DNA of 39,238 bases, taken from the IMG/VR virus record IMGVR_UViG_2728369393_000005; one strand, written 5' to 3'. This document shows, one piece after another, positions 4,867 to 31,500 of the stretch. Below the pieces are notes generated by a model. That model worked only from the letters and a program-made list of their open reading frames with translations, was not told the DNA's origin and searched no databases. Position numbers and translations under genes: made by a program. The first letter of the stretch is position 1; every line of letters begins with the position of its first letter. This DNA is from a virus (Duplodnaviria > Heunggongvirae > Uroviricota > Caudoviricetes).

Positions 4867-5878
4867 AAAGGTGAAAACCGGCAGTTCATCCAGTAAGTCT
4901 GTATTGACCTGGCTTGCTGATATGTGCGGTGCCGATTTGTGTGCATACCCGTCTGTATCTGCACTGGCAGAAGTAACGGAACTGAACAAAAAGACTGTGC
5001 AGGACAGCTTACGACACCTGATGGAGATTGGGTTAATTGTTGATACCGGTGAGAGAAAAGGCAGAACAAAGCAAATTGTGGTGTACCGACTTATCGGTGT
5101 AGAAGAAAGTGTTGCCGAGCCTGAATACACCCAAAAACGGGAGTCTTTAAAGGTGGGTAAAATCGGTGCTGTTAATAAAAACAGTACCGAAAATGGTTAT
5201 GTTTCAGCACAAAACAGACCCAAAAACGGAACTCTTAGCTGCATGGAAAATAACCAAAGACACCCAAATTTTCCATCAAAGACACCCAAAAACGGATCAC
5301 GGAACCCAAAGGAACCCAAAGAGCTAAACCCCACACATAACGCACGCGAGAGTGCTCCGACCAGTGAGCAGAAAGTTTTGTCGTTACAGGCTGCACCTCC
5401 TGTATTCCTGGATGGCCTGAGCGAACCCATCGAAAAATTTCCGATGACCGATAGCTGGTATCCGTCACGGGATTTTCGACGACGGGCTGCGTTGTGGGGG
5501 ATGGCTTTGCCGGAGACAGAATTCACACCTGCTGAACTTGCCGCCTTCCGGGACTACTGGGCTGCTGAGGGGAAAGTGTTTACGCAGATTCAGTGGGAGC
5601 AGAAATTCGCCCGTCACGTAAATCACGTCAGGGCGCAGGTTAAACCAGTCAGCAAGGGGGTAAACCATGCAGCAGCACCAGGTGACACCGCATCACGGGC
5701 AGTTCAGGAAATTCGGGCAGCACGTGAGCAGTGGGAACGTGAAAACGGATTTATCAGCGACGGAAACGGCCTGGAAGCTGTGGGAACTCATGGGGGAGGT
5801 TTATTCGAACCGCTGGACCCAGAAGAACGGGGCCGCACCTTCGAAGCTCTGGATTGCACAGATTGGTGCGATGACTGA
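4838..5878 (+). CDS. Replication initiation protein, O-like, with N-terminal winged helix (3' end uncertain)
   Basis: MSIDALRWAKKV ... LAEVTELNKKTVQDSLRHLMEIGLIVDTG resembles phage replication-initiator N-termini; the last ~70 codons overlap the P-like gene and may be frameshift read-through after the G5 run at 5656..5660. Confidence 0.55.
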   Translation: MSIDALRWAKKVKTGSSSSKSVLTWLADMCGADLCAYPSVSALAEVTELNKKTVQDSLRHLMEIGLIVDTGERKGRTKQIVVYRLIGVEESVAEPEYTQKRESLKVGKIGAVNKNSTENGYVSAQNRPKNGTLSCMENNQRHPNFPSKTPKNGSRNPKEPKELNPTHNARESAPTSEQKVLSLQAAPPVFLDGLSEPIEKFPMTDSWYPSRDFRRRAALWGMALPETEFTPAELAAFRDYWAAEGKVFTQIQWEQKFARHVNHVRAQVKPVSKGVNHAAAPGDTASRAVQEIRAAREQWERENGFISDGNGLEAVGTHGGGLFEPLDPEERGRTFEALDCTDWCDD

Positions 5879-6332
5879 GCAGCAAATCCGACAGGTCTGC
5901 CGCCAGTGCATGGACCGCTGCCGGGCGGGTGAAACATGGCCTCCGGACCTGGCTGAGTTTGTGGCGCTGATTTCGGAAAGCGGAGCCAATCCATTCGGTC
6001 TGACGGTGGATGCCGTGATGGAGGAGTACCGTCGCTGGCGCAACGAGTCCTGGCGATACGACGGGAGCGATAAATACCCGTGGTCTCAGCCTGTGCTGTA
6101 TCACATTTGCCTCGAGATGCGTTCAAAGGGGATTGAGCGGCAGATGACCGAAGGGGAGTTAAAACGGCTTGCAGAACGGCAGCTGACGAAATGGGCAAAG
6201 CATGTTAGTAACGGCCTGAGTGTTCCGCCAGTCCGGCGACAACTGGCGGCACCCAAACGCCCGTCGGGGCCAACGCCAATTGAGTTGCTGAAACAGGAAT
6301 ATGAACGCCGGAAAGCGGCTGGGCTTGTCTGA
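5667..6332 (+). CDS. Replication protein P-like (helicase loader)
   Basis: Central and C-terminal similarity to lambda P as recalled (WIAQIGAMTEQQIRQV versus WVLAFRENGITTMEQV; YPW ... RQL region); follows the O-like gene. Confidence 0.6.
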   Translation: MQQHQVTPHHGQFRKFGQHVSSGNVKTDLSATETAWKLWELMGEVYSNRWTQKNGAAPSKLWIAQIGAMTEQQIRQVCRQCMDRCRAGETWPPDLAEFVALISESGANPFGLTVDAVMEEYRRWRNESWRYDGSDKYPWSQPVLYHICLEMRSKGIERQMTEGELKRLAERQLTKWAKHVSNGLSVPPVRRQLAAPKRPSGPTPIELLKQEYERRKAAGLV

Positions 6333-6364
6333 GTTGAGAAGTAATTTTTACCGGGAGGAAATTT

Positions 6365-27839: not shown

Positions 27840-28367
27840 TTATTGAATGATGCCGCAGGCCATTCTCGCACCACCACCGCCCAGGGGCTCCGGATGGTCA
27901 TGATGGTTATCACCGCCAGCATGAAGCATGAGAGAACGCCCTTTAATCTCTTTTAATGAGTTCAGTCTCGGGGCCAGGACCGGGTAGTTCGCTTTTCCGT
28001 CATGCGTCACGAACAGCGCAGGGAGGTCGCCCAGGTGTCCATCCGGAGACCAGGGGCCAAGATGTTTGCCGGTGTTTTTCGGGTCAAAGTGACCGCCAGC
28101 CGATAATGCTGCGACCGGTTTTCCGTCTTTCAGGGCCGGGGCGCAATTTCCTTTTTCGTGCACATGAAAACCATGAATGCCTTCAGACAGAGAGTGAAGG
28201 GCTGGTGTGAACAGCAGACCGTAGGGGGTCTCCTGAATGGTTATTTTTCCAATGCTGACTTCTTTTCCGTCAGCACTGACAAGGTTCATTGGGACTTCCT
28301 GTTCTGCTGCGTATCCGCATGATGCTGCTGTCAGCATGGCAATGGCAGCAATGATTTTACATTTCAT
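27840..28367 (-). CDS. sodC: Periplasmic Cu/Zn superoxide dismutase (175 aa with signal peptide)
   Basis: [20 protein letters not shown] signal peptide; GFHVHEKG ... GGHFDP ... HLGDLP ... [24 protein letters not shown] motifs; start chosen at 28367. Confidence 0.9.
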
Positions 28368-28500
28368 AAAACCCTCATTAATTCCGTTAACAGACTGAGC
28401 TTGCTGGTTACAGGGTAACAAACAGCGTTCTGATGATATCGCGCAATAGCTGTGCAATATCCTATCACTGCGATTAATAATACCAATTGAGAGGAACATT

Positions 28501-31500
28501 ATGGGCAAAGGTGGCGGCAGGGCGCACACGCCTCGAGAGGCGAAGGATAATCTCAAATCCACGCAGATGATGAGTGTGATTGATGCGATTGGTGAGGGAC
28601 CGATAGAAGGCCCGGTGAAGGGGCTGCAGAGTATCCTGGTGAACAAAACCCCGCTGACGGACACGGACGGCAATCCTGTGATACACGGTGTGACCGCGGT
28701 CTGGCGCGCCGGGGAGCAGGAGCAGACACCACCGGAAGGCTTTGAGTCCTCCGGAGCTGAAACCGGACTGGGCGTGGAAGTGACGAAGGCAAAGCCGGTA
28801 ACGCGCACCATTACGTCCGCGAACATTGACCGCCTGCGGGTCACCTTCGGGTGCAGTCACTGTTGGAGACCACCTCAAAGGGCGACCGTAATCCCTCTTC
28901 TGTCCGACTGCTGATTCAGTTGCAGCGTAACGGTAACTGGGTGACGGAAAAGGATGTCACCATTAACGGCAAGACCACCTCGCAGTTTCTGGCGTCGGTG
29001 ATTCTGGATAATCTGCCTCCCCGTCCTTTTAACATCCGGATGGTCCGGGAGACAGCGGACAGCACCTCGGACCAGCTGCAGAATAAGACGCTCTGGTCGT
29101 CATACACCGAAATCATCGATGTGAAACAGTGCTACCCGAACACGGCGATTGTGGGGCTGCAGGTGGATGCGGAGCAGTTTGGCGGTCAGCAGATGACGGT
29201 GAACTACCATATCCGCGGTCGCATCATCCAGGTACCGTCAAACTATGACCCGGAAAAACGCACGTACAGCGGCATCTGGGACGGCAGCCTGAAACCGGCA
29301 TACAGCAACAACCCGGCCTGGTGCCTGTGGGACATGCTGACTCACCCGCGCTACGGCATGGGAAAACGTCTGGTGGCGGCGGATGTTGACAAGTGGGCGC
29401 TGTATGCCATCGGGCAGTACTGCGACCAGACGGTCCCGGATGGTTTCAGGGGCACAGAGCCGCGGATGACCTTTAATGCGTACCTGTCACAACAGCGTAA
29501 GGCGTGGGACGTTCTCAGTGATTTCTGCTCGGCGATGCGCTGTATGCCGGTATGGAACGGCCAGACGCTGACGTTCGTTCAGGACCGCCCGTCGGATGTG
29601 GTGTGGCCGTACACCAACTGCGATGTGGTGGTGGATGATAACGGCGTGGGGTTTCGCTACAGCTTCAGCGCCCTGAAGGACCGCCACACGGCGGTGGAGG
29701 TGAATTACACCGACCCGCAGAACGGCTGGCAGACCTCCACTGAACTGGTGGAAGACCCGGAAGCCATACTGCGCTACGGACGCAATCTGCTGAAGATGGA
29801 TGCGTTCGGCTGTACCAGTCGCGGTCAGGCTCATCGTGCCGGACTGTGGGTGATAAAGACCGAACTGCTGGAAACGCAGACGGTGGATTTCACGCTCGGG
29901 TCACAGGGGCTGCGTCACACACCCGGTGACATTATTGAAATCTGTGATAACGACTATGCCGGGACCATGACCGGCGGACGTATCCTGTCCATCGATGCCG
30001 CCAGCCGCACCCTGACACTGGACCGTGAGGTGACCCTGCCGGAGACAGGTGCCGCCACGGTGAACCTGATTAACGGCAGCGGTAAGCCGGTGAGCGTGGC
30101 CATCACTGCACACCCCGCGCCGGACCGGATACAGGTCAGCACCCTGCCTGATGGTGTGGAGACATACGGTGTATGGGGACTCTCCCTGCCGTCACTGCGT
30201 CGTCGCCTGTTCCGCTGTGTCGCCATCCGGGAAAACACGGACGGCACCTTTGCCATCACGGCAGTGCAGCACGTACCGGAAAAAGAAGCCATCGTGGATA
30301 ACGGGGCGCACTTTGACGGCGACCAGAGCGGCACCCTGAACAGCGTCATCCCTCCGGCAGTGCAGCACCTGACGGTGGATGTGAGCGCGGCTGACGGTCA
30401 GTATCTGGCACAGGCGAAATGGGACACACCGCGGGTGGTGAAGGGTGTGCGCTTCAGTCTGCGCCTGACCAGCGGAAGCGGAGAAGACAGCCGTCTGGTG
30501 ACCACCGCCATCACTGCGGATACAGAGCATCGTTTCAGTGGTCTGCCGCCCGGGGAATACACCCTGACAGTCAGGGCAATTAACAGTTATGGCCAGCAGG
30601 GCGAACCGGCCACCACCACGTTCAGGATTAATGCACCTGCGGTACCCGCCACGATTGAGCTGACACCGGGCTATTTTCAGATAACGGCGGTCCCGCGTCT
30701 TGCGGTGTATGACCCGACGGTACAGTTTGAGTTCTGGTTTTCGGAGACAAAAATCGCAGACACATCTCAGGTGGAAACCTCTGCCCGTTATCTGGGGACC
30801 GGCAGTCAGTGGAGTGTATCCGGCCCGCACATTAAGCCCGGGAAGGATTTCTGGTTTTACGTGCGCAGCGTCAACCTGGTGGGGAAATCTGCGTTTGTGG
30901 AAGCCAGTGGCCGGGCCAGCAATGATGCAGAAGGGTATCTGGGGCTGTTTCGGGAAAAAATAGGAAAACTGCATCTGGCTCAGGGGCTGTGGGAGCTGAT
31001 AGACAACAGCCAGCTTGCGGATGAGATGGCGGAGATGAAGACCACCATCACCGAAACCCGCAATGAAATCACACAGACGGTCAGTAAAACGCTGGAAGAC
31101 CAGAGCGCCACCATTCAGCAGATACAGCGCGTGCAGAAGGACACAAATGATGACCTTGCTGCACTTTACATGCTGAAGGTACAGAAAACAAAAAATGGCA
31201 TACCCTATGTTGCCGGTATTGGAGCGGGGATTGAGGATACTGATGGCCAGCCCCTGAGCAACATACTGCTGCTGGCTGACCGTATTGCGATGATTAACCC
31301 GGAGGACGGCAACACCACGCCGTTATTTGTGGCGCAGGGGAATCAGTTGTTCATGAACGATGTGTTCCTGAAGCGGCTGTTTGCGGTGAGTATCACCTCG
31401 TCCGGCAACCCCCCGACGTTTTCCCTGACGCCGGAGGGCAGGCTGACCGCAAGAAATGCTGATATCAGCGGTAACGTGAATGCGAATTCCGGGACGCTCA

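Follow-up and report, generated by a model that had tools for sequence, protein, structure and literature searches.

Apparent frameshifts in a defective lambdoid prophage of Escherichia coli O145:H25 probably combine consensus errors, inherited mutations and natural gene arrangements

The prophage and its source assembly

The stretch of DNA analysed here (39,238 bases, hereafter the window) is a defective lambdoid prophage adjoining mtfA/tRNA-Ser in Escherichia coli O145:H25 strain CFSAN004177. Positions 13228-19449 match the CFSAN004177 assembly CP014670.1 (locus L028) exactly. IS insertions, deletions and point frameshifts are found among the prophages of both O157 Sakai and non-O157 EHEC, and the window is a typical EHEC defective lambdoid prophage with no notable difference. 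The Q-lysis-terminase region is missing, lost at an insertion of the IS66-family element ISEc23, and, as in other such prophages, this is accompanied by small real frameshifts, a DUF1627 remnant and effector cargo. The cargo, of type III effectors, lies at the right end. Since the terminase, the lysis genes and Q are all gone, selection would leave real frameshifts in place.

According to its genome paper, CFSAN004177 was sequenced with PacBio RS II P4/C2 reads and assembled with HGAP3/Quiver, and its genome holds 14 similar prophages and 102 insertion sequences. In the searched text of that paper the word 'Illumina' is absent and short-read polishing goes unmentioned. The window was compared with the sister strain CFSAN004176 (L001), NR1441 (L002), RM12581 (L003), PVZZ01000002.1 (L006, in which this prophage was assembled independently) and further loci. 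RM12581 was set aside as an indel reference because several genes of its own within this prophage are 'frameshifted'. Private mutations are conceivable in principle, as CFSAN004176 and CFSAN004177 are distinct isolates, one from 2003 and the other from 2004. The sites given below with coordinates are on the plus strand, except those in tnpC and espW, which are on the minus strand.

Five run-length changes in four genes

An earlier note, made from the sequence alone, had reported at least eight genes broken by frameshifts at short G/C homopolymers. The runs lie where it had placed them (G5 at 5656-5660, G4C5 at 12797-12805, G4 at 16780-16783, C4 at 18077-18080, C5 at 18238-18242, C6 at 18400-18405 and G3 at 28849-28851), and open reading frames do change frame in tnpC, the portal gene, the repeat-protein gene, gp17 and J, but not at the O/P joint, where no relative carries an indel. 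Breaks at homopolymers are found at five sites in four genes. In these genes the relatives encode single open reading frames, of 537 amino acids for tnpC, 454 for the portal, 407 for the repeat protein and 1158 for J.

The first site lies inside the tnpC gene of ISEc23, where the run scan places the C5 part of the G4C5 tract at 12801-12805 and all comparators have C3; CFSAN004176, NR1441 and PVZZ01000002.1 all read GGGGCCCGCG. The two extra bases split the transposase into open reading frames of 208 and 331 amino acids, with the frame switching between 11786-12781 and 12775-13401. This C5 is probably a consensus error, judging from the comparators. In the portal gene, a G4 run at 16780-16783 cuts the product to 168 amino acids (open reading frames 16395-16901 and 16832-17758). 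The site is G5 in L001-L006 and in nine of nine further loci, and G4 only in L028, the window's own source, so that the true length is probably G5. A similar picture is seen in the tail-tip gene J: the run at 28849-28851 is G3 in the window and G4 in L001-L006 and all nine matching loci, including a 12.8-kb draft contig (L036). Here J is reduced to a 137-amino-acid fragment and an open reading frame of 1041 amino acids (28501-28914 and 28851-31976), and a consensus error at a true G4 is the probable cause. The proposal that one base added or removed would mend each gene holds for the portal and J, while in tnpC two bases must go.

The repeat protein contains a 162-bp tandem repeat and is read in three successive frames (17755-18114, 18087-18410 and 18352-18978). 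Every repeat copy of L001, L003 and L004 has a C5 run. In the window, the first full unit has C4 (18077-18080), which shifts the frame, and the third has C6 (18400-18405), which shifts it back; the roughly 108 codons in between are scrambled. The third unit is C5 in the short-read Logan contig L007. Both changes are thus probable consensus errors, with C5 as the likely true length in each unit. The second unit (18238-18242), also listed earlier as a frameshift site, has C5 as in L001 and L003, which is the normal, wild-type length, and is no frameshift site. Other length variants of these C runs occur only in the complete genomes L023, L027 and L029, which hold further 1-bp indels in the locus.

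Indels and substitutions in the window and its relatives

The window differs from CFSAN004176 at 9 places in 39,238 bases, comprising 6 indel events and 3 substitutions. All six indels fall within mononucleotide runs of 3-8 bases, and five of them in G/C runs. Against PVZZ01000002.1 (20.2 kb), the same five indels recur together with only 2 substitutions. These five are private to the window: +2 in tnpC, -1 in the portal gene, -1 and +1 in the repeat-protein gene, and -1 in J. None was seen in CFSAN004176, PVZZ01000002.1 or any other relative checked. Their placement is non-random, as G/C runs of at least 3 bases cover only 7.3% of the window and five of five indels would fall there by chance with P ~2e-6. 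The indel density is about 1 per 7 kb. All five are confined to the IS element and the head and tail genes, which form the GC-rich, multi-copy portion of the prophage; the 11.8-kb left arm has none, and positions 1-11837 show zero gaps against L013.

The comparison with related genomes, which had been proposed as a check, also bears on whether the five indels are genuine mutations acquired by CFSAN004177 since it separated from CFSAN004176, through fast, slippage-driven decay in the absence of selection. We consider this unlikely. It would suit two distinct strains and a prophage that is already dead, with ISEc23 in place of Q, lysis and terminase and real lesions in gp17, the DUF1627 gene and the integrase gene. 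In mutation-accumulation lines of E. coli, however, indels are about one-tenth as frequent as base substitutions, whereas here six indel events stand against three substitutions in 39 kb. The imbalance is sharper in the 2.7-kb portal/repeat locus, where the window shows 3 indels but no substitution, while L022, L025, L026 and L030 have 0 gaps at 1.6-3.2% divergence (44-87 substitutions). Scattered 1-bp indels also occur at this locus in other complete genomes, among them L027, which has nine (one of them 2 bp), and L029, which has two. Real mutation also sits poorly with runs of just 3-6 bases, with a +2 change in a C3 run and with all five changes being private to a single PacBio-only assembly. 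Finally, the sister assembly has a like defect of its own. The espW gene of the window has a T8 run (37213-37220) and encodes an intact 352-amino-acid EspW, found exactly in at least 1000 contigs, whereas CFSAN004176 has T7 and a broken gene.

A window-private base at 8349, one of the three substitutions that separate the window from CFSAN004176, is probably a miscall of the same kind as the run-length errors: an A interrupts a G6 run (GGAGGG instead of GGGGGG), and the base is G in ten of ten other assemblies. We also looked up the window's broken protein fragments in a collection of 15 billion proteins and none was present there, including the 208-amino-acid tnpC fragment; this absence counts for little, since CP014670.1 itself lacks listed gene calls in the portal region.

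Inherited lesions

Two further breaks attributed to homopolymers have other causes. The tail-completion gene gp17, whose frame switches between 20101-20343 and 20273-20446, is broken by a T inserted at 20271 (CCTC-T-AGTG) and not at a G/C run, which leaves an 80-amino-acid product recorded exactly in 8 contigs (NCBI and Logan). Among the 11 contigs read at this locus, L006-L010 match the window through gp17 and carry the inserted T, with L009 and L010 being 100% identical. Three of them are Logan contigs, assembled from the short reads of different runs, and the T is also present in several NCBI assemblies. On this comparative evidence, the insertion is a real, inherited pseudogene lesion away from homopolymers. 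The small gene at 6365-6549, assigned earlier to a run lesion near 6431, is a 3'-truncated remnant of a DUF1627 gene that keeps only the first 198 of 735 nt and carries a 13-bp deletion at 6430/6431. As the deletion is identical in 11 of 11 other assemblies, the alignments identify a real pseudogene here as well, with its lesion away from homopolymers. In addition, a 13-bp duplication in the integrase gene is shared with L001, L011, L013 and L014.

These results weigh heavily against sequencing error as the cause of every listed break, O/P, the DUF1627 gene and gp17 included. That all of them occur in one PacBio-only assembly speaks for such a uniform cause, but it is highly improbable given the gp17 insertion in independent short-read contigs, an unchanged O protein in 431 contigs, and the presence in all 11 other assemblies of both the G5 run at O/P and the 13-bp deletion in the DUF1627 gene. 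Moreover, at none of the gp17, DUF1627 and O/P sites is the feature a one-base homopolymer change. The explanation by homopolymer error, which the earlier note had favoured while leaving true pseudogenisation open, is strongly supported for the five private indels in G/C runs; gp17 and DUF1627 recur in independent assemblies, and O/P is in its conserved state.

Natural gene arrangements

The G5 run at the O/P joint (5656-5660) contains no indel. It is identical in 11 of 11 assemblies, and no run-length difference was found there in 15 comparators (L001, L003-L005, L011-L020 and Rac-SA53). O (4838-5878, 346 amino acids) overlaps P (5667-6332, 221 amino acids) by 212 nt, reaching 72 codons into the P module. 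The overlap is a natural, conserved arrangement and no frameshift: the exact O sequence occurs in 431 contigs, with B7UQ00_ECO27 among the source names, and the exact P sequence in 10. Residues 1-132 of P match Vibrio phage proteins, and homology to diverged O proteins ends at O residue 273, which fits a mosaic joint; the site looks like one from sequence similarity. The out-of-frame overlap may be dual-coding. Compared with Rac-SA53, it has 9 substitutions: 4 are silent in the O frame alone, another 4 in the P frame alone, and the remaining 1 is silent in neither frame. Likewise, protein variants from 90% clusters vary too little to tell the selected frame. We also considered an ancient +1 insertion at 5656-5660, as one G fewer would give O a TAA stop just before the P start. 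We did not adopt this reading, since Rac-SA53 has GGGGGGGAA, without the TAA, and the O protein of TL-2011b likewise bears a 25-amino-acid tail beyond the homology break.

A second natural arrangement lies between the portal and the repeat protein. With the G5 run at 17739-17743, the 454-amino-acid portal ends at the stop codon 17756-17758 and the 407-amino-acid repeat protein starts with the ATG at 17755 (an ATGA overlap), while relatives with G6 encode one fused protein of 861 amino acids. G5 is a natural allele and the split arrangement is widely conserved, although PGAP labels it 'frameshifted'. A sixth sequencing error at this run, shared with the RefSeq record, was considered and rejected in view of G5 in ten of ten loci and of 454-amino-acid portals in NCBI, ENA and Logan contigs. 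Neither this run nor the espW run was on the earlier list.

Discussion

Altogether, we put the probability at about 85% that three unrelated things are mixed in the window, namely consensus errors at five G/C runs, real inherited mutations and natural arrangements. The five run-length changes at G/C runs of 3-6 bases would be leftover consensus errors of PacBio RS II (P4/C2, HGAP3/Quiver) sequencing with no reported short-read polishing. Polymerase reads mis-count short G/C runs, and the 14 similar prophages, the 102 insertion sequences and the internal 162-bp tandem repeat could have kept polishing from fixing them, a step that we infer. The gp17 insertion, the DUF1627 deletion, the integrase duplication and the missing Q-lysis-terminase region would then represent ordinary decay of a prophage no longer able to package DNA. 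The overlapping O and P genes and the separation of portal and repeat protein at G5 would be natural arrangements that are widely conserved. The finding is an ordinary one and points to no new biology.

The five private sites resemble RS II/Quiver-only miscalls in several ways: they are length errors of 1-2 bases confined to short homopolymers, they produce apparent frameshifts and 'pseudogenes', independent or short-read data lack them, and they come from the same generation of platform and assembler. In a re-examined PacBio RS II genome of Clostridium autoethanogenum, about 240 homopolymer under-calls were found, and Sanger sequencing confirmed a sample of them; nearly all the errors were under-calls in runs of >5 bases, at about 1 per 18 kb (PMC4687164). 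Unlike that case, the window has both over- and under-calls, its affected G/C runs are 3-6 bases long and their density of about 1 per 7 kb is higher, which counts against the error reading. So does the +2 change in a C3 run, which is unusual for an error or a real mutation alike. A correction tool for such homopolymer miscalls, Kastor, is available (PMC12007338).

That the five changes are instead real, with frameshifts at very short G/C runs outpacing substitutions in a dead prophage, appears quite improbable; this would imply an unusual mutational process, local or transient, that is prone to slippage. If they are errors, CP014670.1 seems to hold homopolymer errors that went uncorrected and that falsely give tnpC, the portal, the head-associated repeat protein and J the look of pseudogenes, and comparisons of gene content, pseudogenes or prophage integrity using this assembly would overstate decay. 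As one window can combine assembly artefacts, real prophage decay and natural arrangements flagged 'frameshifted', such as the G5 portal split, site-by-site comparison is needed.

The frame switches could also be thought functional, either as phase-variable tracts or as programmed ribosomal frameshifts, and the alternation of G5 and G6 at 17739 between split and fused portal/repeat proteins among lineages lends some colour to this. Phase-variable contingency loci have long simple-sequence tracts whose length varies among strains or clones. Our sites resemble them in that a mononucleotide tract length sets the reading frame, but the tracts, at 3-6 bases, are far below the length of known contingency tracts, the affected genes encode a transposase and phage structural proteins within a dead prophage, and relatives have one unbroken open reading frame and a fixed run length at all five private sites. 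No strain-to-strain variation in tract length was seen at the portal (16780) and J sites in the relatives checked. To our knowledge, frameshifting has not been described for IS66 tnpC. A functional role is therefore scarcely credible at the five sites. In lambda-type tail assembly chaperones (G/GT), a programmed -1 ribosomal frameshift is typical. At the five private sites there is neither an in-register slippery heptamer nor a two-ORF layout conserved in relatives at tnpC, the portal, the repeat protein or J; such a layout with a slippery site is present only for G/GT. This nearby site, the point most in favour of programmed frameshifting, is in the prophage's own chaperone gene, where the heptamer A_AAA_AAG (21600-21606) directly precedes the stop codon of G (21607-21609) and T is read in the -1 frame; the site fits a programmed frameshift by its sequence, and the two-ORF layout is annotated alike in relatives.

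Private indels at short G/C runs

A base-by-base comparison of the window with the sister genome E. coli CFSAN004176 (NZ_CP014583.1), its best although inexact RefSeq match, revealed nine differences across the 39,238 bases. Six of them are indel events, each inside a mononucleotide run: in tnpC (12801-12805, C5 in the window and C3 in CFSAN004176), portal (16780-16783, G4 and G5), twice in the 407-aa repeat protein (18077-18080, C4 and C5; 18400-18405, C6 and C5), in J (28849-28851, G3 and G4) and in espW (37213-37220, T8 and T7). The remaining three are substitutions at 8349, 28815 and 31409; the A at 8349 is private to the window and breaks up what is a G6 run in 10/10 other assemblies.

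The earlier note had placed the runs exactly where they are found, and its frame switches in tnpC, portal, the repeat protein, gp17 and J were upheld. It had also claimed that at least eight genes are broken at G/C runs; the number is four, carrying five private indels (tnpC, portal, repeat protein twice, and J), and the C5 run at 18238, listed as a further frameshift site, is in its normal state. We estimate a probability of about 0.85 that these five private indels are consensus errors, judging from sequence comparison.

This prophage was also assembled independently as PVZZ01000002.1, with 99.96% identity to the window across 20.2 kb. The two sequences are set apart by the same five indels and two substitutions, and the gene calls of PVZZ01000002.1 give a tnpC of 537 aa, a portal of 454 aa, a repeat protein of 407 aa and a J of 1158 aa. 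Further loci agree: the portal site is G5 in 9/9 of them, the J site is G4 in 9/9 matching loci (one a 12.8-kb draft contig), and the third repeat unit has C5 in a short-read Logan contig. G/C runs of three or more hold only 7.3% of window bases, so that finding five of five indels there by chance has P ~2e-6.

Error and real divergence can be told apart most clearly in the 2.7-kb portal/repeat locus. Here, the window and PVZZ01000002.1 differ by three indels and no substitutions, whereas four related loci (L022, L025, L026 and L030) have diverged by 1.6-3.2% with zero gaps. Real divergence at this locus therefore yields substitutions and no indels, the opposite of what the window displays.

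The origin of the window is compatible with such errors. Bases 214861-221082 of CP014670.1 (E. coli CFSAN004177), when reversed, are an exact substring of the window (13228-19449), odd run lengths included. CFSAN004176 and CFSAN004177 are O145:H25 strains from HUS patients of 2003 and 2004; for each, PacBio RS II (P4/C2, five SMRT cells) was the only sequencing platform and HGAP3/Quiver the assembler. The word 'Illumina' occurs nowhere in the paper (PMC5567499). In another published PacBio RS II genome, ~240 homopolymer under-calls, a sample of which was confirmed by Sanger sequencing, led to false frameshift annotations (PMC4687164). Three of the four features that define long-read homopolymer error are found at the private sites, the fourth being disagreement with accurate reads of the same strain. 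Repeats may have hampered polishing here, as CFSAN004177 carries 14 prophages and 102 insertion sequences (PMC5567499) and the locus itself a 162-bp tandem repeat. Greater difficulty of polishing in repeats agrees with the 11.8-kb left arm (window 1-11837), which aligns to the related locus L013 with zero gaps and contains no indel.

Two biological explanations were considered for the private sites. Programmed frameshifting would call for a conserved two-ORF layout, yet none is seen and the relatives have single ORFs. Phase-variable tracts would vary in length, but these runs are short and their length is fixed among strains. A contrasting case is the G/GT junction, where an A_AAA_AAG slippery heptamer (21600-21606; junction 21600-21609) lies just before the stop of tail chaperone G, with T in the -1 frame; this fits natural programmed -1 frameshifting.

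Errors of the kind proposed for the window are probably present in the CFSAN004176 assembly as well, since espW is intact in the window (T8, encoding the 352-aa EspW found in at least 1000 contigs) and broken in CFSAN004176 (T7, annotated as frameshifted). Scattered 1-bp indels in the portal/repeat locus are also seen in other complete genomes, and other copies of the C5 run are C4 in L027 and L029. Across the equivalent of window ~17650-18910, the complete E. coli genomes L023, L027 and L029 have many 1-bp indels (L027 has nine, including one of 2 bp). These indels suggest that public assemblies may often show head genes of EHEC prophages as false pseudogenes.

Altogether, the observation made from the sequence is partly confirmed and yields no new biology, its chief upshot being that CP014670.1 should be used with care at the level of single bases. 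The sequencing-error reading holds for the four genes with private G/C-run indels; it fails for gp17 and the DUF1627 gene, whose lesions recur in independent assemblies, and for the O/P junction, where there is no break.

Natural alleles and inherited lesions

A G5 run at 17739-17743, missing from the earlier list, underlies the PGAP portal frameshift flag in CFSAN004176, RM12581 and UTME-12. In this stretch (17739-17758), G5 keeps a 454-aa portal and a 407-aa repeat protein as separate products with an ATGA stop/start overlap. G5 is present in 10/10 loci having the upstream 73-aa gene, and 454-aa portal forms are found in NCBI, ENA and Logan contigs; G6 lineages encode one fused 861-aa portal/repeat protein with 54-aa repeats. 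The split is a natural allele, G5 and G6 both being widespread.

Three lesions are ordinary inherited prophage decay and involve no homopolymer change. In gp17, a T is inserted between CCTC and AGTG at 20271; eight contigs (NCBI and Logan) list the 80-aa product that it yields, and the insertion is carried by five related loci (L006-L010), three short-read Logan contigs among them, all of which match the window through gp17. The DUF1627 'small gene' at 6431 has a 13-bp deletion, identical in 11/11 other assemblies, and retains only the first 198 of 735 nt. The integrase, flagged as frameshifted by PGAP, has a real 13-bp tandem duplication (1037-1049) at its 3' end, giving 341 aa rather than 345 aa; the duplication is common to L001 (CFSAN004176), L011, L013 and L014 and absent in L018.

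The O/P junction

The G5 run at 5656-5660 showed no length difference in any comparator, and the frame switch proposed for the O/P junction was not borne out. The O and P ORFs (4838-6332) share 212 nt, which they read in different frames. The exact O protein (346 aa) occurs in 431 contigs (one source name is B7UQ00_ECO27) and the exact P protein (221 aa) in 10. In O, the DnaT Pfam domain extends to residue 267, and the similarity shared with more distant O proteins, for example that of TL-2011b (77%), stops at residue 273, the position of the G run; these two ends are probably what had been noticed. That P truly starts near 5667 is shown by its Pfam domain and by distant matches to Vibrio phages over residues 1-132; the RefSeq start at 5871 cuts the domain. 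Relative to Rac-SA53, the overlap has nine substitutions, four silent only in O and four only in P. From these alignments we take the junction to be a mosaic joint, in which the O frame would extend 72 codons into the P module.

Prophage layout and cargo

ORF layout, composition and annotation identify a lambdoid prophage beside mtfA and tRNA-Ser. Its gene order is integrase, repressor/Cro, DnaT-like O, P, a low-GC island with the Septu pair PtuA/PtuB, hokD, the IS66-family element ISEc23, head and tail genes, sodC, J, lom, tail fibres and type III effector genes. ISEc23 (11645-14290; tnpA, tnpB and tnpC at 11786-14204) replaces the Q, lysis and terminase region, so the prophage is defective whatever the status of its frame breaks. 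In relatives, this site is occupied by DUF968, RusA, Q, tRNAs, the lysis genes and the two subunits of terminase; rem is truncated there in the window. The protease/major-capsid fusion gene has a replaced 5' end (641 aa in the window versus 645 aa in relatives).

The low-GC island (7083-10959) comes after the truncated DUF1627 gene. Its PtuA (8964-10337, PADLOC E=1e-165) and the HNH nuclease PtuB (10324-10959, E=1e-83) are preceded by a DUF5677 gene (7083-7925) and by what is left of a decayed tyrosine recombinase (8031-8551). The Cu/Zn superoxide dismutase gene sodC (27840-28367) is placed between tail gene I and J. At the right end (34404-39238), the cargo is a cluster of genes for type III effectors, namely the NleG family, DUF1076 proteins and EspW; after it comes a gene whose annotation is bfpT-regulated chaperone.
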